A DNA stretch of 64,000 nucleotides from Saccostrea echinata. Taxonomy: Eukaryota. The notes under the pieces were generated by a model. The model did no database searches. It worked only from the letters and a program-made list of their open reading frames with translations, and was not told the origin of the DNA. Shown here piece by piece: positions 8,392 through 44,628 of the stretch. The stretch spans positions 5,852,496 through 5,916,495 of the forward strand of contig NW_026889762.1 of NCBI RefSeq assembly GCF_033153115.1, written 5' to 3'. Positions within the stretch are counted from its first letter, which is position 1; each line of letters opens with the position of its first letter. A program made the position numbers and the translations under genes.

Positions 8392-8432
8392 GTTCCTTAT
8401 TTGATGAGGAGGAGCCTGAATTGGAAGATGAG
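8392..8432 (+). CDS. Exon encoding (G/S)SLFDEEEPELEDE, an acidic LFDEEE-type motif.
   Basis: Acceptor agtag at 8387-8391 and donor GTAATA at 8433. Ends in phase 0, compatible with exon 9686. Either a phase 1 carry-over from 4649-4702 or the alternative donor of 4811 gives an open acidic frame. Confidence 0.45.
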
Positions 8433-11113: not shown

Positions 11114-11741
11114 ATCATGATCCCCGGGGGTAGGGTGGGGCCATAATGGGCGATCAAAGTTTTATATACAGTAGGAATAAATAGGAATAAGTCTTTAAAA
11201 ATCTTCTTCTCAAGAACAGCAAAGCCATGATTAGTCATATTTAAATAGAAGCAGCCTCAGGTAGTGTAGATTCAAGTTTGTTCAAATCATGACCCCTGTG
11301 GGTAGGATGGCCCCACAATGGGGGATCAAAGTTTTACATAGGAATACATAGGAAAAATCAGCAACAGCCATTTTGTGTCATATTAATTCAAAAGCATCCT
11401 CAGGAAGTGTAGATTCAAATAAGTTCAAATCATCACTCACCCACCCGCCAACCACTTTTATAGTTAAACTTTTCAAGACTGAACTGATTTCTGCCTTTTC
11501 CTAGCCAAAGTGCCCAGGTGAGCGATGTGGCCCCTGGGCGTCTTGTTGCCTGACGCCACGTGCGTCAGGCAGTATAAGGATTAATTTTTCCAAGATCCGA
11601 AACTAAGCGATCATTCTTAATGAACTAGATTTTCTGGAAGCTGATTTACACTGGATTTTGTTACCTGCCTTTAAACAAATACAGTTTGCAGAAGAAAGAA
11701 TCATATTACTGATGCAAAATAATAATCTGTTTAATTTCTTC

Positions 11742-17451: not shown

Positions 17452-18133
17452 TTTTTTTATGCCCCCGGATCGAAAGATCCCGGGGGTATATTGTTTTTGT
17501 CCTGTCTGTCTGTTTGTCTGTTTATCTGTTTGTCTGTTTGTCCGTTTTCTGTTTGTCTGTCTGTCTGTTGTCAACTTTAACCTTGCCCATAACTTTTGTT
17601 TGGTTGGAGCTATGACTTTTATATTTCACATGTGTATTCCTTGTGACAAGACCTATTTTGGGTACCATCATATTTGACCTTTTGACCTTGACCTTGGAGT
17701 TTGACCCACTTTTGCAAAATTTTATGAGACTTTAACCTTGGCCATAACTTCTGAACAGTTGGTGCTTGGGGTTTCAAACTTCACATGTGTATTCTTTGTG
17801 ACAAGGCCCTCCTTTGGATACCAACAACTTTGACCTTTTGACGTTGACCTTGGAGTTTGACCTACTTTTGAAAAACTTTAACCTTGGCCATAACTTTTGA
17901 ACAGTTGGTGCTTGGGGTTTCAAACTTCAGAAGTGTATTCCTTGTGACAAGACCTTCCTCTGGATAGATACCACTTTGACCCTTTGACCTTGACCTAGGA
18001 GTTTGACCTACTCTTGAAAAACTTTAACCTTGGCCATAACTTTTGAATGGTTGGAGCTAGGGCTTTCATACTTCACATATGTAATCCTTGCGACAAGACC
18101 TTCCTTTGGATACCAACCACCACTTTGACCTTT

Positions 18134-18164
<31 letters not shown>

Positions 18165-18510
18165 GAAAAACTTTAACCTTGGCCATAACTTTTGAATTGT
18201 TGGTGCTAGGGCTTTCATACTTCACATATGTAATCCTTGTGACAAGATCTTCCTTTGGATACCAACCACTTTGACCTTGACCTTGACGTTTGACTTTTAT
18301 TTAAAAAACTTTAACCTTCGCCATAACTTCTGAACAGTTGTATCTAGGTCTTTCAAATTTCACAGGTGTATTCCTCGAGACAAGACCTTTCTTTGGGTAT
18401 CAACATTTTTTATCTTTTGGCCTGGATTTTGACTTGCATTTGAAGAAACAATAACCTTCGCCATAAGCTGCCATACGGGGGCATCAGTGTTTCACAAACA
18501 CAACTTGTTA
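17452..18510 (+). mobile_element. Composite non-autonomous element, copy 1 of 3. The head is ttttatgcccccggatcgaaagat followed by a (gtct)n microsatellite. The body is an internal ~150-bp tandem array (tttgaccttttgaccttgaccttggagtttgacctacttttgaaaaactttaaccttggccataacttttgaa..). The tail is ccataagctgccatacgggggcatcagtgtttcacaaacaca. Resembles the pearl-type elements of bivalves.
   Basis: The same head, array and tail architecture recurs at 36953-38108 and 43480-44628. Artefactual ORFs 17374..17677 lie in the (gtct)n region. Confidence 0.7.
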
Positions 18511-19143: not shown

Positions 19144-19443
19144 GAAAAAACACCACCACCACCACCACCCACTAAGAATATAATACCTCGGTTTCCACCA
19201 TCTGTAAGTGTATCTAGTATACCGCCTCAATCTCTGAGATCTCCACCACCACAATCAATGATAAGAAGAGGCAGAGGGAGAGACAGAGGAGGTGGGGGAG
19301 GGGGAGGAGACCGACAGACTCTATTACAGTCCATAACTAGAGGACAAACTCTAAAGAAAATTCCACCTCGGCCTGAAAAGCCCTCTGTAGAAGATCACCG
19401 GGATATTGTGTTTCAAGCCCTTGAACATAGAGCCAGTATTTCA
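19144..19443 (+). CDS. Exon encoding polyproline, WH2 and C (connector) motifs of a WASP-family VCA module: EKTPPPPPPTKNIIPRFPP..SPPPQSMIRRGRGRDRGGGGGGGDRQTLLQSITRGQTLKKIPPRPEKPSVEDHRDIVFQALEHRASIS.
   Basis: Acceptor tttcag at 19138-19143 and donor GTAATA at 19444. 300 nt, phase 0 in and out. LLQSITRGQTLKKI fits the WH2 consensus LLxxIxxGxxLKK(V/I). IVFQALEHRASIS fits the C-helix pattern (compare WASP LVGALMHVMQKRSRAI and WAVE VATILSRRIAVEYS). Confidence 0.75.
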
Positions 19444-20995: not shown

Positions 20996-22050
20996 TCTTA
21001 AATTAGTGTTCAGCCCAGTTTCGAAGAAAGTTTCAACATATTTCTTTCAAACTTTATAAGCTGATACTTATTAATAAGAATTATACACCACTATATTTTT
21101 TTTTTACCTTAAAATTTCTTTTGACCTTCGCCTCACTTTTCTCAAATTAATTAAGGGTTTTTTCATTTTCCCTGAAAATTTTCAAGACATTTTTAGATCA
21201 CCTCAAGGAAGTTGGTGGAGCTTATGTGATACCCTTGGCGTCGGTGTCGGCGTCTCAGGTTAAATTTTTGGTGCAGTTTTCTTATCTAGTACTTCTATGC
21301 CCTGCATTGATCAGGGTTGCATGGAAAATATTTCTTGTGTGTTTCATTGTACCAGTCAAGGTTTCAGATGCTGCAACTAAGGAATGACCAGGTTAATGTT
21401 TTCAGAGCAGGTTAAAGTTTTTGGAGCACGATAAAGTTTTCCAATAAACTATAAGACCTATGTTGACCAAACTTTCATGGATGATACATCTACGGATTCA
21501 CATTACTAGGCTTGCTTCGGATGCTGGATCTAACTTACATTTTCCAGATGAGTGACCAGGTTAAAGTTTTTGAAGCAGGTTCATTTCTAAGGTAACTATA
21601 AGCCTTATGTTGACCAAACTTGCATGGGTGGTACATCTAAGTATGCACACTACTGGACTTGCTTCGGATGCTGGATAAGACCTACATTTTCCAGATGAGG
21701 GACCATGTTAATGTTTTTGGAGCAGGTTCATTCTTAAGTAAGAATTTGCTGTACCTTGACCAAACTTGCATGGATGATATATGTAAGGATGGACACTACC
21801 AGGCTTGCTTCGGATGCTGGATTTGAATTACATTTTCGAATGAGTGACCAGGTTTAAGCTTTTGGCGCAGGTCCATTACCAAGAAACTATAAGGCCTATC
21901 TGAAGCAAACTTGCCCTGATGATGCGTCAAGGGATGAACACTCTTAAACTTGCTTCAGATGCTTGATTTGAATTACATTTTCTGGAAGAGTGATTAGTTT
22001 TTGGATAAGTTAAGTCCCAATGCATAAATGTTGCATCTTGGGATGTACAC

Positions 22051-22311
22051 GTGTTTTGTTTGTTTGTTTGTTGTTTAATGTCCCTCTCGAGAATTTTTCA
22101 CTCATATGAAGACGCCACCACTTGCCGGTGGAGAGCTACAAATTTTGACCTATACTCGGACTTATGGCTATTGAGCAGTGAGGGATCTTTTTCGTGCCGG
22201 CACCTACTGTGACATGGGACCCAGAGTCGGATTCGAACCCGCGACGTAAGGATCAACTCCTTACTCCGCGACTCTAGAGCAGAGCTCTTACCACTGCGCC
22301 ACGCAGGCGAC
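22051..22311 (-). mobile_element. tRNA-derived SINE (-), with target-site duplication gatgtacac.
   Basis: Reverse-complement head gtcgcctgcgtggcgcagtggtaagagc..ggttcgaatcc. (TTTG)n at the left end. Direct repeats at 22042-22050 and 22312-22320. Confidence 0.85.
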
Positions 22312-23158: not shown

Positions 23159-23266
23159 GAGGAGGAAGAAGGAGATTGGGATTACTCTAAAGAGGAAGCG
23201 CTTGAAGAGGAAGGGAAAAAGAAAGCATTTTATTCTGCAGTGTATGGTTCAAAAGAAAGTGAGAAG
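23159..23266 (+). CDS. Exon encoding the acidic (A) motif of the VCA module: EEEEGDWDYSKEEALEEEGKKKAFYSAVYGSKESEK.
   Basis: Acceptor ttttacag at 23151-23158 and donor GTACTT at 23267. Phase 0 in and out. The acidic run with a single Trp (EEEEGDWDY) directly follows the C helix of exon 19144-19443. If unspliced, the frame stops 10 codons later. Confidence 0.7.
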
Positions 23267-23444
23267 GTACTTTCTACAGTATGTCTCTAGAGTATACCGT
23301 ATAAAGTAATGTTTGGGATTAAGTACATGTAATCCAACTTTTTTGTCTAATCAGCTGCAGGAAACTCATTGTTGAGTGTCTACGAAGTCCCATTTCATAA
23401 AAAATACTTACTACTGTGTCATACTTTCAAATGGTACATTTTTG

Positions 23445-23725
23445 TTTGTTGTTTACCGTCCCTCTCGAGAATTTTTAATCATATGGAGACGCCACCACTT
23501 GCCGGTGGAGGGCTGCGAATTTATACTCGGCACTCGGGACCATTGAGAAGTGTGGGATCTTTTTCGAGACAACATCTACTGCGGCATGGGACCTCGGTTT
23601 ATACGGTCTTATCCGAAGGACCGGTCTCCACTCCCACAGTGGGATTTGAACCCGCGAAGTAAGGATCAGGTACTTAATCTGCGATTCTTGAGCAGACGCT
23701 CTAACCACTGCGCCACGCGGGCAAC
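23445..23725 (-). mobile_element. tRNA-derived SINE (-), with target-site duplication ggtacatttttgt.
   Basis: Reverse-complement head cgttgcccgcgtggcgcagtggttagagcg. Direct repeats at 23432-23444 and 23726-23738. ORFs 23369..23662, 23475..23732 and 23550..23750 are artefacts. Confidence 0.85.
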
Positions 23726-25280: not shown

Positions 25281-26208
25281 AGTGTGATGAAAAAACGACA
25301 TAGGAAAGATCAAAGTACTCCTGCACCACCACCACCACCACCACCACCACTGATAACTAACGAAGACACACTTTTTGGAGCCCAATCACAACCACAGAGT
25401 GGGACAGGCTTTGGGTCATTTCCACCAGCATTTGGGACCCTATCTTCACAATCAGCACCATCAGCCAGCAGTCCGTTTGGAAGTGTGCAAGGTTTTGGCC
25501 CTCCTCCTGCCTTCGGGGCACCCGCTTTATCTAGTGTAAACATTGCATATCAATTCTCATCAGTTTCCGAAAAAAGTGAAACTTCTGGGTTTAGTTTTGG
25601 ACAAACGTTTGGGGCACCTACACAACAAATGTCTACTAACAATGTGTTTGGAGGTCCAGTCACTAAACTCCAAGTGCCCCAACAACAAATGTTTGGAGTA
25701 ACCTCAGGTTTTGGAGGTGGACCACCACCAATTTCTCAAATGTTCCAGCAAACTATGAGAGCAGGTGCTGTTGGAGGACTTCAACCACCTTTATCAAAGA
25801 AAACACATGGATCTGTTGTTCCTGAACCACCTCCTTCATCACGTACTCCGATATTGCGGCCTTCAAAATTTAGAGCAGGTCTGCCTCCAACACCACCCCC
25901 TCCACTCCCTATGGCAGCAGCACCTGGAGGGACTCCAACACCACCCCTTCCACCTCCTACCCAGATGTTCATTGCAGCATCACCTGGAAGGGCTCCACAT
26001 CCTCCTCTTCGACCTTGGCATATAATTGGAGCACCTCCCAAACCTCTTTCAATTGTTCACAATTTAAATATGTTCTCAGAAAAGGAAAGCAGACGTCAAC
26101 CTTCTCAATCTCTTGAAAAAGCAGCGATTTTAACTCAGCATTCACCTCCAGCTCCAACAACAAGAACACTTGAATCTTCCGATAATGCCAAGCAGGTGTC
26201 ATGGAGAA
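25281..26208 (+). CDS. Large exon (928 nt) encoding a Pro-rich, FG-repeat, low-complexity region: SVMKKRHRKDQSTPAPPPPPPPPLITNEDTLFGAQ...FGSFPPAFG...LPPTPPPPLPMAAAPGGTPTPPLPPPTQMF...QVSWR.
   Basis: ORF 25284..26219 with no stops over 309 codons. Preceded by a strong acceptor (15 pyrimidines plus gtag at 25277-25280) and ends at a perfect donor GTAAGT (26209). Phase 0 in, matching exon 23159-23266. Phase 1 out, matching exon 26584. Confidence 0.65.
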
Positions 26209-26583: not shown

Positions 26584-26903
26584 CTATGGGGAGGAAATTG
26601 AACCAAGAGAGAGAAAGCAAACAACAGGAAATGGAAGATAAAATATTGCTAGATTCTCCGCAAGAAAATTTGCGTCAGAGTTTTTTAAAACGATCTCCTG
26701 AGAGAAAACAACAAGAAATGGGAGAGGAAAAATTAGAGAAAACCATGAAAAAAATAAAAACAAAATCCTTGAATCGTAAACAAAAAAAGCTGACAAAAGA
26801 GGATATTTCTCCAGCAAAGGAAGCTGAGCCACTACTGATAGAATCTCCACAAGAAATACAACGTCTGAGTTTTATAGAAAGGTCTCCCGAGAGAAAGGAA
26901 ACG
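26584..26903 (+). CDS. Exon encoding a charged region with two copies of a ~30-aa internal repeat: LLDSPQENLRQSFLKRSPERKQQE and LLIESPQEIQRLSFIERSPERKET.
   Basis: Acceptor ctaatag at 26577-26583 and donor GTGAGA at 26904. ORF 26586..26927. Phase 1 in and phase 0 out. Confidence 0.6.
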
Positions 26904-27307
26904 GTGAGATATCTTAGCCAGAATTAATCTTGAAATGGATTGTTATCTATAGATCATTGTGGTGTTAAAGTTGTCATTTTTTTTACAAACATGTCATGAT
27001 GTGTGAAGTGCTTCACCGTCCCTTTCAGTTCACATAAGGTTTTTTTTTTTTTTTAATCCTTTGGATTTAGTACACAAGCGAAGAGGTTATTTAAGTCACC
27101 TTTTGTTGAGAGTAGTCATCAATTAACTAACATTTGCTTAAGATAATTAATAGATGGAATGTGAATATTACATTTAAATGTATACTGTAGAAACACAGAT
27201 ATTTGTGGGGATAAAATTTCGTTCTTTAGTCTTCCAAGAAGGTTTCATGGGCATTAAATTTCATTGTTTCGAGAGTAACCCTATAGTAACCCTATTCTAT
27301 ACATATA

Positions 27308-29506
27308 CGAGGGTTGTTCGGAAAGTTCGTGGACTATGCCAATCTTCGTTATACTATCTTCAAGTAATTTAAAATGAGCATATGTAAAAATATTTGTTTT
27401 GTTTAAGTGTGAAGTTTCATTCCATGTGATTAAATAGAATTCATGCTGTTTAATTTTAAAATCAACACGTTTTGTAACCACCGAGCAAACTCAACAACAC
27501 TGTACGTCAAAAACATACCGACATGAGGTTCTCAAAAATACTATCCCCATACATTTCGCACAGTATTGCCCAATACGAGTGCACTCATTAAAAACGTTTC
27601 TCTATCACTTTAAGGTAGTATGGGATACCTCCACGTTATGACGTATTTCCGTTTGAAGTATTGTTTTGATTTGCATGAGTGCTTATTATCGGGTCAAAAT
27701 TTGTAGATACACCGTTGAAAAGAACACTCTGAAGCCTATTTCAATGCAAGTTCTCACAAGTCGGCATTTTAAGTAAAAACAGACAAAAAAATCGCAAGTA
27801 TATAAATTTACTTATAATTGTACAACGGACATTTAAAAGAGCAAACCCCTGTAAAAGGTAGTTTCAACATTGCTGCTTTTGAACACTTTTAAGCAAAAGC
27901 TGTATTTCAATTGTTTGAGTAACTGTACAGCACGTTGTGTGCGGTGAGGCATGGATAAGTGCAATTACTTCACATTGTGCTGAATTATCACCAATCAATT
28001 ATCACGTTAACCAGGGCTGGACTTTTTTGTTATTTAATTCAAGAAGTAACTGTTTGGTCACAAATCAGCTAGCTGTTGTATATAGTCCCAAAACGTTCAG
28101 ATGAATGCAATTGCTCTGAACAAGACAGGTCCTGGAAAGCGATTGTCCGTGCATTGTTTTCAAAACCGCTCAAAGTTGAAAACTACAAAGTGCGATTTTT
28201 TATGGTTGGGAAAAAATGCTCATCATTTCTAAAATAGCACCCAGGTTTTTTCAACCCTTGGAAAATAAAGAAGGATAACTCTTCCGCTCGGATCTTTTAA
28301 TTCAAAAAATTTTAAATGCATTTTATATTTTCCATTTATATATATATTTTCAATTTGTTTATTTCACTTTGCTAACATATTAAGATACATTCTAATTGTA
28401 GACTTTCATGAAATGTTATCCGTCTGTTTTCAAGAAATAAAGTTTTCCCAGTTTTTTACGCTTATTTTTTGGTGAAAATTAAAAAAATACTAAGACATAT
28501 TTCTTGTCATTTTTGTTTTTATAAACACTTTATATTAGCAAACGCCTGCCTATAATATTAAGCTTATGAAAAAAGAGTTATGCAAGAAAAAAATCGTTTT
28601 TGTATTTCTCATTAAAATAATAAAAAAATTATTAAAATTACACTTTAATATACTGAAAGGTGGGGGTATTTCAAATCCTTCTAATTTGGGTACATAAATA
28701 TGTAGGAGAAGTTTCCTTTGGTATCCCATACCACCTTAAATCTATTTTGCTAACAATTGTTCCAGTAGCATCATTTTGTTTGTCAATGTTATATTTTTTT
28801 CACTGCATGAGTGTGCTTTCACAAGATCAGCATCTGTGAAGCGCTAAACTCTTAGCATGACGTAAATAACTTTTCAATGTTTTTGATAAAATTTTTACAG
28901 ATAATCCATTTTCTCACAGATATTCTTCATCTAAGCAGAGTATTCTACTATTCAAATACCGCTTGTACCATGTACACACACATGCATGGCTAGCTTTTGA
29001 CGTATATCCTACTTCCTCCGGCATTTTCAGAGTTTTATTGTGAAGTTTTCCAGAGTACAACACAAAATTGAATGGTTAACTACTGCTCCGTGACGTTCTA
29101 CGACGTCATCTTTTTTGCCTTTTTCAATGAGAACTGCCTATCTTCTGAAACCAATTTCTTTTCAACGAAGTAAAATATTAAGTCATAATTTGGAATCAGA
29201 AACGATGAAAAAATTCTTAATTTGAACATGTAGAATTTTTCCGTTTTTTGTGTCATTTTACAGAAGATATGACTTCAGACATTATTTAGTGTCTTGATTG
29301 TAAATTACGAAATTTTGACCTGCTCCGTGATCCGATTTTCACATTTTTTAAGTCTTAATAAGTTTGAAATAAACCATGATATTTTAAAAATTTTAATACA
29401 CATCATTTGAATTTACTATTGAAATATTTCTTACAAATTTGGATATGATATGACGTTAAGTAAAAAAGTTATGACGGTAGTCCACGAACTTTCCGAACAA
29501 CCCTCG
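27308..29506. mobile_element. TA-flanked DNA transposon with ~30-bp terminal inverted repeats (cgagggttgttcggaaagttcgtggactat), about 2.2 kb, with no intact transposase ORF (non-autonomous). Tc1/mariner-superfamily-like.
   Basis: Left terminus at 27308-27337 and its reverse complement at 29477-29506. TA dinucleotides flank both ends (27306-27307 and 29507-29508). Termini are related to the element at 39469-40433. Confidence 0.75.
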
Positions 29507-30129
29507 TAGTCATATAAAAATTTCGTGTGGGGTTTAATTTCGTTGAAAATTGTTTACAACAAAATAAATGAAATTAAATCCCACACGAATATTTCTGCTT
29601 TTACAGTATTAAATGTTTTAAAGATTAAGAGTATATGACATCACACTTTTCATTCATGAAATATGAAGGTAACGAACAGTTAACAAGCTAAAAAAAAATC
29701 CATTAAAACAATACAAACTTGTAGCAGAGCAAACATGGGAATTTTATTAAATATCAGAGGTAGGATAAGGTGTCGTAGAGAAGCATCCCTTGCACCCCCA
29801 TGCATATCTGTTATGAAGTTCAAACGCTACTTATGATGTGTGACTGGTTCGAAACTTTGTGGAAATATTTTAGTTCAACTGACCTGAGAGCTCTAGTGAG
29901 CTTTTCTGATCATCCATTGTTCAGATTCCATCTGTTTGTGTGTATATCCATCTTTACACCCATTTATGTTCTAAAGAACCACTTGACAGATTAGCAAAGT
30001 TTGCACAAAGTATTTTTCGTAAAGGAGATTCAAAGTTTTCAAATAAAGGACCTATCCCCCTTAAAAGAGGAGATAATCAAGAAGACAAAAATAGGGTAGG
30101 GTCATTAAAATTTTCTCTAGAACCGCTTG

Positions 30130-30640
30130 GCCAAAAGATCAACTTAATCTAAAGGCATCCTGAGGTAAAGATTTGTTTAAACATAGCTCTTGAGGGTAGA
30201 GTGGGGCCACAAAAATGGATCAAAATTTTCAATTAAATTTGTAGGAAAACCTTTAAAATTCTTTTCACGAACCACTTCACAAGAAAAGATAAAACATTTG
30301 ACACCAGGGGTTATTTAGATTCTACGTTGTTCGGATCATGGTCCTATGGTACCATGAATCAGAGTTTTATATCGAAATATATAGGGAAAAATTATTTAGA
30401 TTCTGATTTGTTAAAGTTTGGCCCAGTGGAGGGGGGGGGGGGGGGCAGAAGTGGCTCATATTTTACATTGAAATGAATTGGAAAAAGCTTTTAAACTCTG
30501 AAAAGTTGTAACTTATGTGAAAGCCTTCTTTTAACGTTGATTGTATTTCATTGATCAAATCATGCTTCTGGGGATATGGTGTAGGCACTATAGGGAAATT
30601 TTTACATTGGACTATTTAAAAAATATCAAATTCTCTCACC
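30130..30640. repeat. Diverged tandem units related to the ~168-bp satellite.
   Basis: ...gggtagagtggggccacaaaaatggatcaaaattttcaat... and similar motifs recur three times. Confidence 0.55.
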
Positions 30641-33017
30641 TGGGTATATTTTACTTAATGCAAGTATACCGAAAATAAAATTCTCCGAAACTGCAAGACC
30701 ATGTTAGTTATATTGAAGAATCCCCATGTTGTGTGGAATCAGAAACTCCTCATAATTAGGGTGTGCTTAAAATATAAGAACATTACCTCTCATGGAAATA
30801 AAAAAAAATCTCTTAATTTTCTAAAGAACTGCTTAAGTGACACGCATCCAGGTGCGGTTTGTGGCCCACATTGACGTTCTGTCGTGGACTATCTCACTAT
30901 GTCTTGAATCAAACATGACAAAAAAAAAACTCAAAAATGACTATCTAATACAAGCCTTGTAGATATCCATGTTGGAAGTATAATCTCGAAAATGCGGTGG
31001 TTACACAAATTATAGAATCTGTCACAATCTCTTAATGAAGTATGCAAAACATAAATAAGATAAGGAAAGGTATAATGTTCAATAATTATTTTTCAACGTA
31101 TGGCACCATACTTGCTTTATTTTTGCATTTTGTTTCAACCAGTGCAAATGTAGTTGAGGAACCACTTGATACATTAAAAAAATAGTGATATCAATATTCT
31201 TATGTTTAATAAATTAATATCGATATGAAGTCATATTTTGATGGCATCGTGCAGTCTGCATTAGCAAGTAAGGATTACTTCAAAGTCTTTTCAGATATGG
31301 AACAACTAAAATATAGTACATAGAAAAAATTGTAAATCAAAAAGAAAAATCTTCATCTTTTCTATACTACATTGTTTTCATTCGTGTGGGGTAGTAGAAA
31401 CATTTCAGAGTAGAGGGAGAAAGAAAGAAAGAACATTGACATTATTTCACTTAATAACAGTCACGCCATATTATTCAAGATACGAGTGTCCTAATGGTTA
31501 TTTCATATCTTGTTTACAAATTAAATTTGCATTAGTTACAAAAGATAATGTTGTTGGTTCTGCATGGATTAATGACTGGAAGCGTCACTTATAAAATAAT
31601 GTAAAGAGTGAAATTTTAACTGACTTGTGTTATTGTGTCTTCTAGTACAGTACTATTTCGAAAATTTTAAATGGTTCAAAATAATTGTTATTATACCCCC
31701 GCAAACGAAGTTGGGGGGGGGGGGGGTATTGGAATCAGCATGTCTGTCTGTCCGTCTGTCTGTAGACGTGATTTTGTCCGGATCATTTCTCGGAGACTAT
31801 TACATGGATTTGTCTGAAAATTTGTACAGTCATTATGCACCATATGAAGGTGTGCACCTGGTATTTTCGTCTTGATTGGATAATATTTCTGCATTTTACA
31901 GGTGTTTTTTCTCATTTTTATTGACTTAGTCATTTTGAGTTCCTGTAGGTTTGAGGCATAGAATCTAGAACTGCCAGTTGGTACATCTGTATAAAAACGT
32001 GAATTGCAGCTTAAAACTACTCTTTAAAACTCAAAAAATCACCAAGTATTCAAAAAAGTTATTTGGTAGATAATCCATACAAATCTAAGAGTCATAAAGT
32101 ACCCTTATTAAAAAAAAGTTGCATCAAAATTAAACAGTTCTTTTTTTTCATTATATAAAACTTTGTAAGAAATTTAGAAAATCTTTGTTTTCAACAGAAT
32201 GACATATACATGCATTTTCTATTGTGTGACAGATTCACAGCACATAACACAGCAGATAGTGTAAATCCATTTGTTACCTGGGAGTAATGAGTGGACATGC
32301 ATCCAGTTTAAGATTAATTAATGGGCAGAGTGGGAAGCTGTTAGAGGTGTTATCTATATCTCCTGGGAATTTGGCAGAAGAATTAAAGATCTCTGTTCTC
32401 TAACTCTCTTAATATTAATTTATATTAGTCTAGCTGTCAAATTAAAATACATAGTTACTGGATGACCAGTCTTTTATTTTTAAGATGAATTTGGGATAAA
32501 GTTTTTTATTTTTATTTTATTTCATTTTCAACAAACAAATTGCAGAGTGTACAGTGTAATTTCTAACAAAAATGACAAATGCAATTTATTTTTTCAATCT
32601 AATAAAAAAACAGTATAATTGAACAACAATAATTATAAATATTATTAATTAATTAATATAATTAATAAACAATGTAACAATAATTATTATTATAGATGTG
32701 TTATTTGGCTGCACCTTATTTCATCATTCATTAAAAAAAATATAAAGATCAATGAAATTTTCACTCTTAATTGTTTAAACAAATTGTGAACACCTCTTAG
32801 AGCCATAAAATATGTTTAGTGACTTGGCACCTTTTCTGAAAAATCCAGCGGGGGTTATTTGTCCATATTGAACAGTTCTAGTTTTTACTGTTTTAAGTTT
32901 AACTACAAATTAAGTTAAATCATCACTTGTGAATGAAAATTGATAATAATACTTTAACGTTATCAAGTATACAACTTTGTATAATCATTTTACTTTTAAA
33001 ATATATATTATTTTTAG

Positions 33018-33137
33018 GAGTCTCATTCACTATTGCTGTTGGACGTCGCACCACTTTCTATAGGGGTAGAGGACGCCGAGGGGAATTTCTGTGTAGTTAT
33101 CGCAAGAAACACCACGATTCCTTGTCGGAAAGAACAG
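33018..33137 (+). CDS. Exon 1 of 8 seen of an Hsp70-family substrate-binding-domain gene: [40 protein letters not shown].
   Basis: Compare canonical Hsp70 [36 protein letters not shown]. Acceptor tttttag at 33011-33017, with an in-frame stop immediately upstream, so it must be spliced to an upstream exon. Weak donor GTTCAA at 33138. Phase 0. Confidence 0.75.
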
Positions 33138-33984
33138 GTTCAATTCTTGATAATTGAAATATATTTGAAGAATTTTAATTTTAAACAAAAAATGTATACA
33201 TTACTCAATGTTTCGTATAAGAAGAAGTTTAACTTAAATTTATCAGTAATGATAGCGATCACTCTAGAAAATACACCAATTTCGGAAACTTAATTGAATC
33301 TTTAGATCTATTTTTTCATAAATGTAGTTTATTTGAAGCAAATTCAAATTAAATTTCATACTACGATGTTCCTATATGTGAATGATTTTTTTTTGTTCAA
33401 TATGTTTTCAAAACAAATGCAAAATTATTTTTAATACATTGCAAACAGTTAGTGAAGGCAGTAGCGAGAGATAAACAAATATTCACTTTTTGTATCTTGA
33501 GCTTGATCCATTTTAAATAGTATCAATTCCTTATCATCCAATAGTACTTATCCACTAGTATAAATTTTGTTGACACAACAAAATATAATTTGAAATATTT
33601 TGGAACAGACTGAAGAATGCAGTTTAAAAATAAGCCTATCTTCTACATGTACTTCAGTGTATAATGGCATTTGAAGCAAAACAGCTTTACATGAACTTAA
33701 TAAATTTGAGAGATTTTATCGAGGGAAAGTGCAGCAATTTTATAGATATCGTTATATACTGTGATTGAGACAGGTTATAACGAAAACATAAATTTTAGAT
33801 TTCAATAAAGTGTCAGTGATATTTAAATAAATTATTTTTAAAACGTAATTCAAAAATGTCTATATAGAAAATGCTTCAAAACTCACCTTATATTACAAAA
33901 TGTTTCAAGTTTGCTTTTCACAAAAAAATACTATTTTCTTATATGAATTATATCTATTATAGATTTTTAAAATATGCTTTTTAG

Positions 33985-34089
33985 AATTTCACGTGTATTG
34001 ATAACAAACAGAGCAGAGTAGATGTCAGAGTTTATGAAGGATGCATGAAGGAGGCCAAGCGGAACCATTTTCTGGGACAGCTCCAGATT
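33985..34089 (+). CDS. Hsp70 SBD exon 2: NFTCIDNKQSRVDVRVYEGCMKEAKRNHFLGQLQI.
   Basis: Compare Hsp70 [35 protein letters not shown]. Acceptor tttttag at 33978-33984 and donor GTAAGT at 34090. Phase 0 in and out. Confidence 0.75.
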
Positions 34090-34364
34090 GTAAGTAAAGA
34101 TTAACATGCTAATATGTAAAAGTTGAACTGGTTTTTAAATTGAAGTAATTGCTTGATATTCGTTGCATGCAAAATGTGATATAACTGGTGGCTTTGTAAT
34201 TCCATATGCATATCTAGAATGTCAGCAAAGTATGTCTATAAAATATTTTTTTTAATTTTTAAGACAGATTTGTTTTCCAATATATTTTTTCTAATTTTGT
34301 TTCAGAAAATTAGAAGAAGTATATAAGATATGTATCTAAATAATAAACATTTTTAATTTTCTAG

Positions 34365-34482
34365 AAAAATATTTTGCCTTCCCATCCTGGAAGCCCATGG
34401 ATAAAAGTGACCATTGATATTGACGCCAACGGAATAACAACAGTTAAAGTAACAGACATCAGATCTCTGCGCTCTGAGTCCT
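34365..34482 (+). CDS. Hsp70 SBD exon 3: KNILPSHPGSPWIKVTIDIDANGITTVKVTDIRSLRSES.
   Basis: Compare Hsp70 [29 protein letters not shown]. Acceptor ctag at 34361-34364 and donor GTAAGC at 34483. Phase 1 out. Confidence 0.75.
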
Positions 34483-34650
34483 GTAAGCAATAATACACCT
34501 ACACTGCACTCTGAGTCCTGTAAGCAATAATACACATACACTGCACTCTGAGTCCTGTAAGCAATAATACACCTACACTGCGCTTTGAGTCCTGTAAGCA
34601 ATAATAACCTACACTGCGCTCTGAGTCCTGTAAGCAATAAAAAACATACT
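34483..34650. repeat. Tandem repeat, about 38-bp unit, 5 copies. Each copy reproduces the last ~17 nt of exon 34365-34482 plus its GTAAGC donor (ctacactgcactctgagtcctgtaagcaataatacac).
   Basis: Direct reading. It creates four extra potential donor sites downstream of the exon. ORF 34353..34637 (minus) is an artefact. Confidence 0.85.
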
Positions 34651-35026
34651 CTGTTCCAACTTCTCTTAAGTTTTGCTTCTTTCAGATTACAATTTACATA
34701 GAAAATAATTTTTCAGGGGGAAAGTGATTTTTTAACAAGTGAGCTGATTAAACCATAATTATTAAATTCCATGATATAAGTAATGGATTATCATATAATA
34801 GTCCTTTTATTAAAATGTCATATTTAATAATAATGGTCATTCTAATGACATCAAATCAGAAATATTACAAAAATAATATTTCTAATGAACAATTGCAGTT
34901 TTCTCTACTCAAACCTGATTGGTAGATTTATATAACTCCATAAATATTATTAAGGTTTGTCTGTAGATTGTTTCAATTAAAATTTAGGATTTAATTTATA
35001 TCTGATGATTTTATATGTACATACAG

Positions 35027-35121
35027 TTAAGATAGGAAATGACAAAGGCAGACTGAGTCAAGAACAAATTGAGCACATGGTAAAGGAAGCTGAAAAAGAG
35101 AGAATGAAATCTGCTACAGAG
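35027..35121 (+). CDS. Hsp70 SBD exon 4: (F)KIGNDKGRLSQEQIEHMVKEAEKERMKSATE.
   Basis: Compare Hsp70 [30 protein letters not shown]. Acceptor atacag at 35021-35026 and donor GTAAGT at 35122. Phase 1 in, matching the previous exon, and phase 0 out. Confidence 0.75.
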
Positions 35122-36342
35122 GTAAGTCTTCATTTTAAGGGTCTCCATTGAGTTATGGCTACCTATTGCAGTTCTTTGGCCAGAAGCTTCTTAAGGGTTT
35201 TTTTTCTAAAATAGATGGAAAATTTTATTAATATTTAATACACATTTAATTCATTTGTGCAAGGGAAACAAACTTGTTTTTGCATGGTCTCCAATATTCT
35301 TACCTTACTCTTCATCGTCTTAGAACTGAGGAAGGGCAAATTTTGTATTGAAAATGCAATATACTTTAAGAGCACTATTTTTCATTTAATTGGTCATATC
35401 TACAGATCAAGCAGACAAATAGATTTGGTGGACAAGTTCGGACATGCTTTGTCCTAGAATATTCTTGAAAATACTCTTATTCCTTTGTGATTGTCAAGAA
35501 CCCTTGTCATCTTTTGTGTATAGCAACATATCTACCATTAACAATTTGAGGATCTGAAAATAAATATTCTTTAAAAATTTCTATCTCAATGTATTATTAA
35601 GAGAAATATTAAAGTAACAGTGTGATGGAAAAGGAAAAAACTGACAAAAGTAGAATTTTTGGATGACCAATTCTTGAAGATATTAGGTTTCAGAAAATTA
35701 CAGGTTTCTGAACCTAAAAAAATCTACTTTTTTGGAGAAAAATAAAAGTAAAATTAATTTTTGTTTGCCCCTAAACAAAAATATTGCTTCACTTCTTCCT
35801 CTTTATTGTACACATGCGCAGAAAAGTTGAAGAATTTACTATGGTGTCAATTCCATAGATGAAATATATGATATAAATATCGGATGACCGATGATTTTGA
35901 TACAATCTTCAATAAAGATGATCAGAACCTATTTCTCACTTCTGTTTGCTCCAATTCAATGTTGTTTACAAGTTTCACGCTAAAAATAAAAGTCGCTCGA
36001 CCTTGACATTGTTGACATTGACGATAACAACAAAGCGGTAGATACAACCTTCAAGTTTGTTTTTCCGGCACTTATATTTTGCAGTTCTTTTCTTGCTTTA
36101 CAGTGCAGTTGAGTTGTCAAACCTTCGCTTTAGTCATATTTCATATATTAAATCTTTTGTTTTATGATACAATTATCTTGAAAGAAACACACGATTTTGA
36201 CTCATTATGTAACTTTAAATAAAATATCTAGAAAAATAAATATTTCCAGAATTAAAATATTTAACCAAAAAGAATTTTGCTAAAGAAATTCATATATCAT
36301 CAAGTTGTATAAGATGTTAATGTACAATTTTTGTTTGTCTAG

Positions 36343-36397
36343 CTTATGCCAAGGACTTCAAAACTACCTGCGTTGCCAGTGGGATATGAAGAAAAAG
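36343..36397 (+). CDS. Candidate exon 5 of the same gene: LMPRTSKLPALPVGYEEK.
   Basis: Acceptor gtctag at 36337-36342 and donor GTACTT at 36398. Phase 0 in and phase 1 out, consistent with its neighbours. No recognisable homology. Confidence 0.45.
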
Positions 36398-36952
36398 GTA
36401 CTTTTGTGCACTATTTATGATGAAAGTTAAATACAAATATAAAGATTCTTTTTTCATGATTCAGGATGATAACATTGTCTTGATCATACAGTTTTTCGCT
36501 CAGTAAAGAACTCAGTGAGCTTTTATGACTGAAGATTGCCTTGTGACATTCTGTCTTTTTGCCGTGTCTTCTATAAGTATTTCACACTTAACATCTTCAC
36601 AAAAAACATGTACGAAATTTAAAAAAAACTGGAAAAATACTAACATTATATTTAAGCCATATAAAAAGCATACAAAATAGAAATAGCATTTTAAGAGCTA
36701 CATTCAGGGTTAATTATGTCACTAGGAGTTTATTGTAATGATGGTGTTACCATAGGTACCAAACTTAACAACTAAAGGCTTTAAAAAATTCTTGTAAATG
36801 AGCAGCAGAATTAGGATTTTGCCATTTACTAGTTAATATACAACACTCCAAATATAGTGCAGATTCAGATATGTCATGAGCTCTGGGCTAGGTAAGGCTC
36901 TACTAGAGATTCATTGTGTATGGGAATAAATGTACATAAGAAATGGTTTTTA

Positions 36953-37293
36953 TTTTGCCCCGGGATCGAAAGATATATATTGTTTTTGTCCTGTCTGCCT
37001 GTTTGTCTGTCTGTCTGTCTGTTGTCAACTTTAACCTTGCCCATAACTTTTGATTGGTTGGAGCTGTGACTTTCATATCTCACATGTGCATTCCTTGTGA
37101 CAAGACCTTTCTTTGGGTACCATCGTATTTGACCTTTTGACCTTGGCCTTGGAGTTCGACCCACTTTTGCAAAATTTTATGAGACTTTAACCTTGGCCAT
37201 AATTTCTGAACAGTTGGTGCTTGGGGTTTCAAACTTCACAAGTGTATTCTTTGTGACTAGGCCTCCCTTTGGATACCAACAACTTTGACCTTT

Positions 37294-37324
<31 letters not shown>

Positions 37325-38108
37325 GAAAAAATTTAACCTTGTCCATAACTTTTGAACAGTTGGTGCTTGGGGTTTCAAACTTCACATGTGTATTCCTTGT
37401 AACAAGACCTTCCTCTGGATATCAACCTCTTTGACCCTTTGACCTTGACCTAGGAGTTTGACCTACTTTTGAAAAACTTTAACCTTGGCCATAACTTTTG
37501 AATGGTTGGAGCTAGGGCTTTCATACTTTACATATGTAATCCTTGTGACAAGACCTTTTTGGATACCAACCACTTTGACCTTTTGACCTTGACCTAGGAG
37601 TTTGACCTACTTTTGAAAAACTTAAACCTTGGCCATAACCTAGGAGTTTGACCTACTTTTGAAAAACTTTAACCTTGGCCATAACTTTTGAATGGTTGAA
37701 GCTAGGGCTTTCATACTTCACATATGTTATCCTTGTGACATCACCTTCCTTTGGATACCAACCACTTTGACCTTTTGACCTTGACATAGGAGTTTGACCC
37801 ACTTTTGAAAAACTTTAACCTTGGCCACAACTTTTGAATGGTTGGTGCTAGGGCTTTCATACTTCACCAACCACTTTGACCCTGACTTTGACGTTTTCCT
37901 TACTTTTAAAAAACTTTAACCTTCGCCGTAACTTTTGAACAGTTGCAGCTAGGTCTTTCAAATTTCACAAGTATATTCCTCGAGACAAGACCTTTCTTTG
38001 GGTACCAACATTTTTTATCTTTTGGCTTGGATTTTGACTTGCATATGAGAAACTTTAACCTTCGCCATAAGCTGCCATATGGAGGCATCAGTGTTTCACA
38101 AACACATA
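36953..38108 (+). mobile_element. Composite pearl-like element, copy 2 (head ttttgccccgggatcgaaagat, (gtct)n, ~150-bp tandem array, tail ccataagctgccatatggaggcatcagtgtttcacaaacaca). Lies in an intron of the Hsp70-like gene.
   Basis: Same architecture as 17452-18510 and 43480-44628. ORFs 36874..37164, 37906..38088 and 37943..38149 are artefacts. Confidence 0.7.
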
Positions 38109-38531
38109 TTGTTATATTTTCTTTAAGAATAGCAGTTCCAACTAAGTGATATTGATATAAACATTCCTAAGTTGTGTTTATTTTTTTTCTTCATATAATG
38201 GATCCTGTAGTTAGAATGGGTCAAAAACAGGGGTTCAAATTTTACATTAGATAAAAAAAAAACCCATATTATACTCTCCAGCACAAAAGGCGTAATGTTA
38301 GTAATATTTATTATGTACAGAAGCACCATGTAGTATGACTTTAAGTTTGGTTACGCCATTGCCTCTTGATGCTTAAAAGGGTTATTATATGGGGTAGAAA
38401 TATTATATGCCAGTATTTATGGGAATTTTTTTTAATTTGATTAACCAAGGGTCAAATAACAACATTATTTACATGTAATTTCATGTTTGATTCCGATACC
38501 TCATAACAAAATCTTCTGTATTCATTGGTAG

Positions 38532-38638
38532 CTTCTGATGTAAACTCTTATGGTATTGGATCTTCTGTCAGCAATGTTCTTAAGGAGACCCCAAGACTGA
38601 ATATATCCTCACTACAAGCGATGTTTAATATTCAAGAG
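38532..38638 (+). CDS. Candidate exon 6: (A)SDVNSYGIGSSVSNVLKETPRLNISSLQAMFNIQE.
   Basis: Acceptor ttggtag at 38525-38531 and donor GTAATC at 38639. Phase 1 in and phase 0 out. Confidence 0.45.
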
Positions 38639-39133
38639 GTAATCTTTTACTCATAATATGTGTAGGTACAACATGATTACTTAATGCAACATTCTTTTTG
38701 TTCATAATGGTACATTTCAGCTCCGCCACTTTGCAATGGATTTTTGGGGGTTTAGAAGCAATTTCTAATCTAAGAAGGGACTGAATCAATATTAAAACAG
38801 GAATATTTTTAAAACTAATATAGCCATGTGAGAAGTATTCTGAAGTACCCTTTGACCATTAGCTTGACTCTCAATATAAAATACTGTCAAGAATTTCTTC
38901 AATATATCAGGTTGTACATGACTGTATATAACTTCTTGACATATGTATGTAAGGTACATGCATATTTGATGAAAATAGTTCAAACTGTTGTAAATTTTAT
39001 GACTTTGAATCTTCCTGTGAACTTATTTACATAAATATAGACTACATGAACATGTACATACATTATGAATATTTGACTGAGTGTTTTGCATATGATAAAT
39101 GTGCTTAGTTTGAAATACTTCTGTCACCAACAG

Positions 39134-39233
39134 AACAATTTATGGAAACTTGGAGCGAATTTGGAGGAGACTTTTGGAATTGACATCACAAAATGTATGG
39201 ACATCCTCCAAGGAGCAGGATTAAATTCACTTG
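39134..39233 (+). CDS. Candidate exon 7: NNLWKLGANLEETFGIDITKCMDILQGAGLNSL(G).
   Basis: Acceptor caacag at 39128-39133 and donor GTATGT at 39234. Phase 0 in and phase 1 out. Lies within ORF 39086..39361. Confidence 0.45.
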
Positions 39234-39468
39234 GTATGTACACAAAGAACTGGACATTATGCTTGGTTAAAACACATATAAAAGAACATAGGAATATGAA
39301 GATGAGGAGGCCACCACAAATATATATAGGGATTCATCTAAATTTTTTTCTGACATGCTAAGAAAAATTTCTCTCAACATAAATTCTTTCTTTTATATGA
39401 TACAGGTGTATTTTGTTTCAAATTTCTTTGTATAAAATACTCTTCTCTTTTTAATTAATTTGAAAATA

Positions 39469-40433
39469 CGAGGGGTGATCAAAAAGTTCGCGAACTAATT
39501 GAATAACTTCCTTGGAAGAAATAAAATGAGATTTCAATGTTCATTATTTTTTAAGGTAGTCCTCTCCAATTATAATGTACATCTGCCATTGTTCTGCCCA
39601 TTCGCGAATCACGTGATCCAGGCGGTCACGTGACATGCTTCGTAGCGGTTTGTTCACAAAAGATAAGAGATTTTTCCTTGTCTTATATTTCTTACCATGC
39701 AAATTATTTTTTAAAACAAAACAGACCATCTGTCAGAAATGGCCAAATCTCGGCAATAGGATGGCTGGATAAGGATATCCCTTCCCAGAATTAGAATGGT
39801 GACCATCAAATCCCGAGTCCTCTGTCTCGGGAGCGTCGTTTATCCAATATGGAAAAAGTATGGGTGCCTTCTTTTTATCATATCTGATATTTTTAAAGTT
39901 TAAAACAAACGATATTTTAGGGATTTGATAATCATATTATTGTTCAGATATTCAACTATTTTTCTAATTGTAACTTGGCGATCTTTCCAAACAAATTGCT
40001 CAACTAAGGACGCATCTTTTTACCGGCTTGCTTTCGCTGGGCAACAGAATGGACATCATTTTTAACCATCTACCTGCCTTCACTAAAACAATCAATCCAA
40101 TTAATAATTGAACTTCTGGTAAGTCTTTTGTCTTCTTAAACCGTGTACAAATTATCATATTCTACTGCAAAGGAATTTCCGAGATATATGTTAAACTTTA
40201 CAGCCGTTCGTTGCTCGAGTACAACTGAGTGAACCATTTTTTGTCACAAGTCACCTAGATATTGACGTCATTTTCACATTATGACGTCACAAACACGAAA
40301 CAAAACATTATATAACATCTGCTATTTATAGAACATGTATATGACTATATGTGTGCCAAATTTCTTACTGATCTGAATTGTGGTTTAATTTGTAAATATA
40401 GAGATAGTTCACGAACTTTTTGATCACCCCTCA
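39469..40433. mobile_element. TA-flanked TIR element, about 0.96 kb (termini cgaggggtgatcaaaaagttcgcgaact), non-autonomous. Related to the element at 27308-29506. Lies in the intron between candidate exons 7 and 8.
   Basis: Left terminus at 39469-39496 and its reverse complement at 40406-40433 with one terminal mismatch. Flanked by TA at 39467-39468 and 40434-40435. Confidence 0.75.
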
Positions 40434-40497
40434 TATATGTGTACTTGTATTCATTTTCCATAAAGCTAACTACGAATATTTTCTCTTTCTGTATCAG

Positions 40498-40841
40498 GTA
40501 AAAAGGTTGGAGATGATGTCCTAGAATTGATATCTTCAGCCCTGGCCCTGCTCCTTATCCTTAAAATAATTGTTCCAGAGTTATTTCCTTTAGACTTTTC
40601 TAATCAGCTCAGTCTTTTGTCTGCATTCATGAAAGCAGAAAATAAATTAAAGAAAATGAGCATTGATGGTGGATTTTTAGAGGAAAGGCTAAGAGTTTCG
40701 GTGGAGACATACATAGCCAAGAGACAGAAATATGACTGGGTGTGTGATATGTTGGAATTAGGTCATACGTGGGAGGAGGCGGCCAGTAGAATGCTTGGAT
40801 ACACTTCATCTCTGGAAACTAAAGCCCCTCTTTATATATAA
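40498..40841 (+). CDS. Candidate terminal exon 8: (G)KKVGDDVLELISSALALLLILKIIVPELFPLDFSNQLSLLSAFMKAENKLKKMSIDGGFLEERLRVSVETYIAKRQKYDWVCDMLELGHTWEEAASRMLGYTSSLETKAPLYI, then stop.
   Basis: ORF 40527..40841 extends upstream to the acceptor tatcag at 40492-40497. Phase 1 in, matching exon 39134-39233. Stop TAA at 40839-40841. No recognisable homology. Confidence 0.45.
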
Positions 40842-43260: not shown

Positions 43261-43479
43261 TTATACACAGTGTTAATTTTTGGATATAAATACAGGTAGT
43301 AAGAGAGAGAGATTATTCAGTCAAAGGATAAATTTTTCCCTATGACGGCAGGACAAAAATAAATAAATAAATTTTTAAGAATAATAATAAATAATCATTA
43401 AACAAAAGGAATTTCAGCACACTTCATATTCACAAAGGCTAAGGACAAAAAAGTCAAAGAAACACTGGGCCTGTATTAA

Positions 43480-44628
43480 CTTCTCTGTTTTGCTTTTTGC
43501 CCTGTCCGTCCCTCTAGCTGTCTGTTTGTCCGCAAAATCTTTAATATTGCTCACAACTTTTGATTGTTTGGAGATATGGCTTTCATATTTCACATGTGTA
43601 TTCCTTGTGACAAGACCTTTCTTTGAGTACCATCATATTTGACCATTTGATATTACCTTGGAGTTTGACCCAATTTTACAAAATTTTACCCAACATTAAC
43701 CTTGGCCATAACTTTTGAATGGTTGGTGCTAGGGCTTTCATACTTCACATGTGTAATCCTTATGACAAGACCTTCCTTTGGATGCCAACAAATTTGTCTT
43801 TGACTTAGGAGTTTGACCTACTTTTGAAAAACTTTAACCTTGACCATAACTTTTGAATGGTTGGTGTGAGGGCTTTCATTCTTCACATGTGTAATTCTTG
43901 TGACAAGAGCTTCCTTTAGATACCAACAACTTTGACCATTTGACCTTGACCTAGGAGTTTGACCTACTTTCGAAAAACTTTAACCTTGGCCATAACTTTT
44001 GAATGGTTGGTGCTAGGGCTTTCATTCTTCACGTGTATTCCTTGTGACAATACCTTCCTTTAGATACCAACAATCTTAGCCCATTGACCTTGATTTTGGA
44101 GTTTGACCTACTTTTGAAAAAAACTTTAACCTTGGCCATAACTTTTGAACAGTTGATGGTAGGGCTTTCGTACTTCACGTATGTAATCCTTGTGACAAGA
44201 TCTTACTTTGGATCACAACAACTTTGACCCTTTGCCTGTTTTTGAAAAACTTTAACCTTTGTTATACCTTTTGAATGGTTGGTGCTAGGGCTTTCATATT
44301 TCACACCTGTATTTCTTGTTAGGCCTTGTCTCATGCACCATTAATTTTGACCTTGACCTTAATGTGTGACTTACTTTTGAGAATTTTTAACCTTTTCATT
44401 ATCTATTCAATGGTTGCTGCTAGGGGCTTTCATATTTCACAGGTATATTCCTCTGGACAAGACCTTAGTTTGGATACTAAAATATTTGATTTGCATTTGA
44501 GAAAGTTTAACCTTTGCTATAAGTTGCCATATGGGGGCATCAGTGTTTCACAAACACATCTTCTTTTTGTTTTTTGTTTTGTTTTTTATTTGGGGGGGGG
44601 GGGGGGGGGGGGGGGGGTGAATGCACAT
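43480..44628 (+). mobile_element. Composite pearl-like element, copy 3. It ends in a 36-nt poly(G) tract (44592-44627) about 120 bp downstream of the BCCIP stop codon.
   Basis: Head gccctgtccgtccctctagctgtctgtttgtcc, ~150-bp tandem array, and tail ctataagttgccatatgggggcatcagtgtttcacaaacaca. ORF 44326..44649 is an artefact. Confidence 0.7.

Follow-up and report, generated by a model that had tools for sequence, protein, structure and literature searches.

An Hsp70 substrate-binding domain without an ATPase domain, joined to a predicted PARP4 MINT-like domain in a conserved bivalve gene

Results

Eight exons encode an Hsp70-derived domain and a non-Hsp70 C-terminus

The 64,000-nucleotide stretch of Saccostrea echinata DNA analysed here (the window; RefSeq assembly GCF_033153115.1, contig NW_026889762.1, forward-strand positions 5,852,496 to 5,916,495) carries eight plus-strand exons at window positions 33018-40841 that encode an Hsp70 substrate-binding domain (SBD) followed by a C-terminal domain resembling the MINT domain of PARP4. 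These exons are most likely the 3' half of one conserved gene of pteriomorph bivalves, LOC133186285 in S. echinata. Both domains are known; their combination is a new, conserved domain architecture. A first-pass annotation, made from the sequence alone, had offered a chimeric gene as one of three explanations for these exons, and that option proved to be the correct one.

AG acceptors and GT donors bound the exons throughout, and the joined exons give 1044 nt in frame, ending in TAA (Table 1). The 347-aa (amino acid) product has no internal stop and consists of the Hsp70 interdomain linker, SBD-beta and helix A, followed by ~205 aa of non-Hsp70 sequence. A 392-aa homologue from another species, used as a tblastn query, recovered 8 of the 8 exons, which is far beyond chance. 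An in-frame TAG at 33015-33017 abuts the 33018 acceptor and an upstream coding exon is therefore required, as the first-pass annotation had argued.

The coding sequence is under purifying selection. The ratio of nonsynonymous to synonymous substitution rates (dN/dS) against S. cucullata was 0.13 over 287 codons at a dS of 0.40 (contigs L002 and L004, in which the alignable exon sequence is gap-free), indicating that the region is not a pseudogene. By part, dN/dS was 0.26 for the SBD, 0.10 for linker exons 5-6 and 0.09 for the MINT-like exons 7-8; at the nucleotide level, SBD exon 1 was 90% identical to S. cucullata L004 5253-5372. The architecture is present in both Ostreida and Pterioida. Another bivalve expresses the SBD-plus-MINT layout as spliced RNA: a 1390-nt Logan contig (L001, SRR20648599) contains all eight exon equivalents and no introns, whereas genomic contigs from that species are interrupted by introns at the corresponding positions, which identifies L001 as a spliced mRNA.

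The Hsp70-derived part retains the peptide pocket but lacks the ATPase domain and the lid

The first 144 residues, encoded by exons 1-4, matched positions 382-522 of the Pfam HSP70 profile (PF00012) with an E value of 1.5e-33, in agreement with the first-pass reading of four phase-linked exons as an SBD-beta. These exons include GNDKGRLS, within which NDKGRLS is a cytosolic-type signature, and identity to cytosolic Hsp70 SBDs was 41-54%, the closest being of HSPA1/8 type (48-54%). The Pfam match ended at position 522 of 599 and the alignment with DnaK diverged past helix A. Because similarity stops there, lid helices B-E are absent. Neither the helical lid nor the EEVD tail is present in the 347-aa product, whose C-terminus is instead the MINT-like domain; the earlier annotation was thus right that the four downstream exons hold neither, while its estimate of 230 aa for their product was too long. 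When three full-length Hsp70s were compared by tblastn with both strands of the 64-kb window, no nucleotide-binding domain (NBD) segment was found at E <= 10 and the matches were the four SBD exons only, which confirms the reported lack of an NBD upstream. The orthologues P0128 (Pinctada imbricata) and P0002 also have no NBD.

An AlphaFold2 (AF2) model, built on orthologue P0002, had a predicted local distance difference test (pLDDT) score above 90 in the SBD beta sandwich and superimposed on 4wv5_A, the SBD of human Hsp70, at 1.7 A across 130 columns. In the alignment, the DnaK pocket residues I401, F426, V436, I438 and I472 correspond to V, F, V, V and I in the window. Each of the three fusion proteins keeps hydrophobic residues at these positions, P0002 having Ala where DnaK has V436. 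Hsp70 lacking its ATPase domain retains substrate binding in vitro (PMC3638396), and by that analogy it is a reasonable inference that this SBD-beta would bind peptides independently of ATP.

The oyster gene thus has in common with cytosolic Hsp70/Hsc70 (HSPA8/HSPA1 type) the LLLLDV linker, the eight-stranded SBD-beta sandwich, helix A and the hydrophobic pocket, but differs in lacking the NBD, lid helices B-E and EEVD, in placing the SBD in the middle of a larger non-chaperone product, and in having an acidic L1,2 loop. HSPA13/STCH is a natural truncated Hsp70 relative with an NBD and without an SBD. It likewise keeps one functional half, and the oyster gene is its mirror image, with the SBD kept and foreign domains fused to it. 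The SBD intron positions do not coincide with the exon sizes of human HSPA8, a comparison with a non-mollusc gene that gives no firm indication of the route by which the SBD was captured.

A 37-bp tandem repeat (34467-34640, plus strand, 4.7 copies, 94% match) begins within SBD exon 3. The donor of this exon, GAGTCCT|GTAAGC, sits in the first repeat copy and is duplicated several times by the repeat; the copy 1 donor alone preserves the frame, and use of later copies leads to TAA. Just the first ~40 bp of this stretch can be aligned to S. cucullata contig L002.

The C-terminal domain is a predicted homologue of the PARP4 MINT domain

Precomputed Pfam matches place PF26156 (PARP4_MVP-ID) on the S. 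cucullata orthologue P0001. A local Pfam release reported HSP70 alone for the 347-aa product, P0001 and P0002, even at E 10, and because this release is older than the precomputed matches, the assignment was reached by other routes. A word-indexed protein search with the C-terminus only gave four matches, and a HMMER profile of the C-terminal domain gave 23 matches among 1.84 billion representative proteins. Matches to the profile included a chiton PARP4 of 2150 aa (E 1.4e-4) in which the domain occupies residues 2021-2148, at the extreme C-terminus of a protein laid out as BRCT, PARP_reg, VIT, VWA, a phenylalanine-glycine (FG) repeat region and MINT. Against PDB sequences, a profile of six C-terminal sequences found nothing significant; a 26-sequence mollusc profile matched human PARP4 1598-1707 at E 2.5e-8. 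The first-pass annotation had called this C-terminus unrecognised and had suggested predicting its structure: the AF2 model of the MINT-like domain is all-helical with a pLDDT of 81.6, and in Foldseek its sole match below E 1 was 9bw6_B, the PARP4 MINT domain. Judged by profile similarity and predicted fold, the C-terminal domain is homologous to the PARP4 MINT/MVP-ID domain (PF26156; human 1562-1724; PDB 9bw6), and the description as unrecognised no longer holds.

The PARP4 MINT domain docks onto repeats 3-5 of MVP, and an S1614A/K1618A double mutant abolishes the complex in gel filtration (PMC12280208). The S and K of the window motif NSLGKKV align with PARP4 S1614 and K1618. That bivalves express MVP is indicated by a listed C. 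gigas primer pair for it. The resemblance to PARP4 also extends to domain order, since in the oyster gene, as in chiton PARP4, the domain follows a long FG/Pro-rich disordered spacer. Unlike PARP4, the oyster gene has no BRCT, PARP catalytic, VIT or VWA domain, R1689 and Q1682 are changed, and MVP binding is putative. Indeed, Pfam found none of these four domains in the S. echinata protein P0124 or the S. cucullata proteins P0125 and P0126, in which the only matches were HSP70 and a weak WH2, and tblastn of chiton PARP4 against the window gave nothing at E <= 0.01.

Several other mollusc proteins, from chiton, scallops, Aplysia and abalone, have a MINT-like C-terminus with varied N-termini (P0142, P0134, P0138, P0139, P0140 and P0129; examples in Table 1). 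The N-termini range from a full PARP4 to a ubiquitin-like domain and FG-like or Pro-rich repeats, and are mostly long regions of Pro-rich or FG-like low complexity. Among these proteins the Hsp70 SBD insert is confined to the lineage of Saccostrea, Pinctada and P0002. That a chiton has a full PARP4 including a MINT domain fits poorly with the remark that PARP4 binding is a vertebrate feature (PMC12280208).

The SBD and the MINT-like domain are separated by a stretch (36343-36397 and 38532-38600) that has a pLDDT below 50 yet is strongly conserved as PRxxKLPALPxG...EKAxDxNSYGIGxSVS, with a dN/dS of 0.10. Its conservation despite predicted disorder suggests the presence of a short linear binding motif.

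Upstream exons most likely belong to the same gene

A search with the upstream exons led to LOC133186285 of S. echinata, whose 530-aa protein P0124 shows 99.7-100% identity to the window and whose coding exons could be rebuilt exactly with GT/AG borders (7593-7610, 7846-7940, 8387-8432, 9686-9739, 23159-23266, 25281-26208 and 26584-26924). At its 3' end this RefSeq model reads through a donor at 26903/26904 and adds seven codons (VRYLSQN) before a stop at which the model ends (26924); the nearest AATAAA/ATTAAA is at 27253, ~330 nt beyond this point. The model appears to be truncated, unless it represents an intron-retaining short isoform. If the donor is used instead, the exons at 19144-19443, 23159-23266, 25281-26208 and 26584-26903 are all AG/GT-bounded, share one frame with 33018, and give 552 + 347 codons with no stop. 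The first-pass annotation had assigned this upstream space to a separate VCA-containing gene, which does not fit these data: from the arrangement of the sequence, the "VCA gene" and the exons at 33018-40841 are most likely one gene.

Three other species bear on this junction. In S. cucullata, a RefSeq model named "formin-F-like" (P0126) runs from a Pro/FG region through the homologue of exon B directly into the start of the SBD. The Pinctada imbricata protein P0128 (KAK3096544.1, 742 aa) contains a Pro/FG-rich region, the VSWR motif found at the end of exon A, an acidic motif, RRSDSASFLKGSP, an SBD-beta (Pfam E 1.9e-35) and a MINT-like C-terminus. In the Pinctada genome TKKIERRSDSASFLKGSPKSSSQD and ILLLDV...RVSK lie within a single exon (L011 ~11363-11542), and the non-NBD flank of the SBD is thus a genomic fact free of splice prediction. 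Between exon B and the SBD, S. echinata has a proposed intron of 6.1 kb; its S. cucullata counterpart measures 198 bp, and Pinctada lacks it. As to the cause of the expansion, a self-BLAST found one short repeat family only (29656-29793). In the third species, the leader of mRNA contig L001, ...RRSFAGRPQQSTSENGKTT-LLLLDV, carries an RxSFxxR motif with the spacing seen at the end of exon B; the motif lies 16-17 aa before LLLLDV and is common to exon B, P0002 and P0128. Pinctada and Saccostrea share the first two SBD intron positions, which follow RKEQ/RVSK and LQI/FQL, and have the third in equivalent stretches.

Residues 1-40 of P0126 form a SNAP25-like SNARE motif (S. cucullata L004) with no counterpart in the window. 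We do not count this N-terminus as part of the gene; it may be an artefact of a chimeric gene model, a neighbouring gene in a fragmented assembly, or specific to S. cucullata.

The exon at 19144-19443 is skipped in P0124 and conserved in P0125 of S. cucullata (64% identity), which makes it a probable cassette exon. In P0125, the segment homologous to it matched the Pfam WH2 profile weakly, below the cut-off (E 0.017). As in the VCA modules of the WASP family, a WH2-like segment (LLQSITRGQTLKKI), a C-like amphipathic stretch and an acidic Trp stretch follow one another in that order; unlike those modules, the oyster version is internal, its WH2 falls below the Pfam cut-off, and the RefSeq isoform omits the WH2/C exon.

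No S. echinata protein in the protein collection covers the SBD or the MINT part, the best match being an S. cucullata fragment with 90-92% identity, and for this reason the eight exons are probably unannotated in S. echinata.

Table 1. Positions of the exons and related features in the 64-kb window, with accessions of mollusc proteins sharing the C-terminal domain
Feature	Position or accession	Strand	Remarks
5' coding exons of LOC133186285	7593-7610 (ATG), 7846-7940, 8387-8432, 9686-9739	+	from reconstruction of the P0124 N-terminus
Exon with WH2-like TLLQSITRGQTLKKI and C-like DIVFQALEHRASIS	19144-19443	+	in phase; skipped in RefSeq isoform P0124
Acidic Trp exon EEEEGDWD...	23159-23266	+	A part of the VCA-like module
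Upstream exon A	25281-26208	+	309 aa, Pro-rich/FG-rich low complexity, ends QVSWR; in P0124
Upstream exon B	26584-26903	+	charged, K/E/S-rich, ends ...RLSFIERSPERKET; donor ACG|GTGAGA, phase 0; proposed splice partner of 33018
Proposed intron, exon B to SBD exon 1	26904-33017	+	6.1 kb; orthologous S. cucullata intron 198 bp (L004 5053-5250)
SBD exon 1	33018-33137	+	last linker residues, strands beta1-beta2, NTTIP loop; phase 0 at both ends
SBD exon 2	33985-34089	+	NFTC...VRVYEG...LGQLQI; pocket equivalents of DnaK F426, V436, I438
SBD exon 3	34365-34482	+	WIKVTIDIDANGI...; phase 1 end
SBD exon 4	35027-35121	+	last beta strand KIGNDKGRLS and helix A QEQIEHMVKEAEKE; Hsp70 similarity stops here
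Linker exon	36343-36397	+	conserved motif PRxxKLPALPxG; predicted disordered
Linker exon 2	38532-38638	+	NSYGIGSSVS... into MINT-like start SSLQAMFNIQE
MINT-like domain, first part	39134-39233	+	NNLWKLGANLEETFGIDITKCMDILQGAGLNSLG; S of SLG aligns with human PARP4 S1614
MINT-like domain, main part and TAA	40498-40841	+	KKVGDD...PELFPLDF...KRQKYDWVCDMLELGHTWEE...
MINT-tailed mollusc proteins	Ylistrum XP_060065435; Aplysia XP_005096629 ('POM121'); Argopecten and Haliotis 'PARP4-like'; UPI0005AE4C7E (ubiquitin-like domain)

Alternative gene structures

We regard the gene-structure part of this explanation as very probably correct, with several observations weighing against it. In S. echinata itself the junction from 26903 to 33018 is a prediction. 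Neither P0124 of S. echinata nor P0125 of S. cucullata, both RefSeq models, extends as far as the SBD, and short isoforms without the SBD-MINT half may predominate. L001 has in-frame stops 5' of an ATG located 58 codons before the SBD; the ATG opens a complete 392-aa open reading frame (ORF), and a short stand-alone SBD-MINT product is possible, even if the last of these stops abuts an A12 run. With stops upstream in L001 and with both RefSeq models ending early, short isoforms of both kinds may exist. The same observations, together with the read-through of the 26903 donor in P0124 and the several in-frame ATGs of exon B, would also suit two genes: a VCA/Pro-rich gene ending at 26924, and a separate short gene or internal-promoter isoform of ~390-450 aa made of leader, SBD-beta and MINT-like domain. 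We consider this improbable, as the 33018 acceptor needs an upstream exon for which exon B is the sole conserved candidate, P0126 and P0128 are fused models, and the intervening intron is so short in S. cucullata and missing in Pinctada. Moreover, the RxSFxxR motif marks the leader of L001 as a homologue of the tail of exon B, and the start of a short isoform would then still lie within the "other" gene.

A decaying fragment of a partial Hsp70 duplication, whether a pseudogene or an exon relic that stays open by chance, could account for the missing NBD, the tandem repeat on one donor site and the absence of an annotated S. echinata protein over the exons. It is very improbable given the dN/dS of 0.13 at a dS of 0.40, the 16 intact splice sites out of 16, the conservation, across Ostreida and Pterioida, of the architecture and of the first two intron positions in the SBD, and the spliced mRNA in another species. 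The first-pass annotation had also allowed for an NBD encoded very far upstream, which would make the locus a canonical Hsp70 with NBD exons outside the window, spliced to 33018 across the gene in between. Its sole support is that the window reaches no more than 33 kb upstream of the acceptor. None of the orthologues has an NBD, non-NBD sequence shares an exon with ILLLDV in Pinctada, the S. cucullata model and L001 have a disordered leader right before the linker, and the 64 kb contain no NBD; P0128, with 742 aa and no NBD, and the L001 mRNA contradict such a gene, and we find it scarcely credible.

Does the MINT-like domain dock onto vaults?

Combined with docking of the MINT-like domain onto MVP, the single-gene structure would make the product a vault-tethered peptide clamp, a joint explanation that we judge about evenly balanced between right and wrong. 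By analogy with PARP4, docking to vaults in oysters is itself a tentative proposal, which we place a little on the doubtful side. It is plausible but unproven because the MVP residues that contact PARP4 are reported to be conserved in vertebrates only (PMC12280208). Further points run the same way: of the four PARP4 contact residues named, Q1682 and R1689 are replaced in the window by K and M, and orthologues differ at the K1618 position, with Q in P0002 and R in P0128. In the SBD, the L1,2 loop is also remodelled and acidic in the fusion proteins (EDAEG, EDADG and EAEDG versus ETAGG), and its substrate preference may for that reason differ from that of Hsp70.

The same fused gene could instead have a MINT-like domain that does not bind mollusc vaults and acts as a general helical interaction module. 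Through its WH2/acidic, poly-Pro and FG-rich region the protein might, for example, serve as a cytoskeletal or condensate scaffold, and the SBD-beta would bind a peptide from a partner protein or from the disordered part of the same chain. The WH2-like, acidic-W and poly-Pro features of the N-terminus are typical of actin regulators, and the mollusc family pairs the same C-terminal domain with unrelated N-termini; both fit such a role, as do the restricted conservation of the MVP contacts and the changed contact residues. We nevertheless consider it somewhat unlikely, since MVP docking is the sole experimentally known role of the MINT fold, the domain sits at the extreme C-terminus past an FG/Pro-rich spacer exactly as in chiton PARP4, and equivalents of S1614 and K1618 are found in the window.

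Other features of the window

Members of this protein family share acidic stretches that finish with M-G/A-F-G/S-L-F-D: ESEEEEELEDQWMGLFDDGG at 4645-4707 on the plus strand of the window, EEDDDMAFSLFDD at ~310-330 of Pinctada P0128 and DDDMGFGLFDGE at ~330-345 of P0139. They resemble the conserved C-terminal tail of ribosomal P-stalk proteins. The window copy has its homologue at the N-terminus of S. cucullata P0125 and could represent an additional 5' exon.

The remnant of a mariner/Tc1-type transposase ORF occupies positions 1-900 of the plus strand (HQDNAPAH...PYSPDLAPMDF). Several introns of the gene contain copies of an interspersed repeat that includes a long pseudo-ORF (...SLSRIFHSYGDATTCWWRAANFDLY...), at 3505-3840, 22009-22209 and 23351-23659, and this repeat also occurs at S. 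cucullata L004 3073-3350. Degenerate blocks of a ~170-180 bp repeat built on ttgaccttgaccttggagtttgacc lie at 36950-38080 (intron 5), 17370-18450 and 43400-44340, and are like a satellite or a miniature inverted-repeat transposable element.

Discussion

The full product would be ~870 aa, or ~970 aa with the WH2 exon. Its predicted layout runs from a disordered N-terminal region (acidic motifs, an optional WH2/C/A module, Pro/FG-rich and charged segments) through an interdomain linker, SBD-beta and helix A of cytosolic-Hsc70 type to a ~60-aa linker and the all-helical MINT-like domain, with no ATPase domain, lid or EEVD. In the proposed mechanism, the MINT-like domain would dock the protein onto MVP inside vault particles, as for PARP4, or onto another MINT partner. 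The lid-less SBD-beta, which keeps its pocket, could then serve as an ATP-independent clamp for extended peptides, acting as a holdase or cargo receptor, and the disordered FG/Pro/WH2 region may add multivalent contacts. Because chiton PARP4 combines an FG-rich spacer with MINT, a gene type also seen in mollusc PARP4, we suggest that SBD exons were captured from a cytosolic Hsp70 paralogue and inserted into a gene of this FG-rich-plus-MINT type.

In the literature we found no description of an NBD-less Hsp70 SBD fused to MINT, of NBD-less Hsp70 genes in bivalves, or of a MINT-tailed protein family in molluscs; the UniRef name of the Pinctada protein, "PARP4 MVP-ID C-terminal domain-containing protein", is an automated tag. 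For annotation, the RefSeq model LOC133186285 of S. echinata appears truncated, leaving eight conserved downstream coding exons unannotated.

Hsp70 substrate-binding domains are almost always driven by an ATPase. A conserved natural protein that has the clamp and neither motor nor lid indicates that the peptide clamp has been reused as a stand-alone binding module, which will be a clear surprise to chaperone specialists even while the functional reading is still inference. To our knowledge, no domain other than MINT is known to hold a protein in place within vault particles. The joining of a clamp to MINT, together with several other MINT-tailed mollusc proteins, suggests a natural vault-loading system. 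A broader version, in which MINT is a modular address tag that loads diverse mollusc proteins into vaults and this gene supplies the vault's ATP-independent Hsp70-type clamp on the inner wall, is speculative and, in our judgement, unlikely. The function of vaults has been unclear for decades, and the SBD-MINT protein opens a direct experiment on it that also bears on engineered MINT-tagged vault cargo. If the proposal is true, a clamp fixed to the vault, acting as cargo receptor or holdase, would give the particle a concrete, testable function in holding client proteins.

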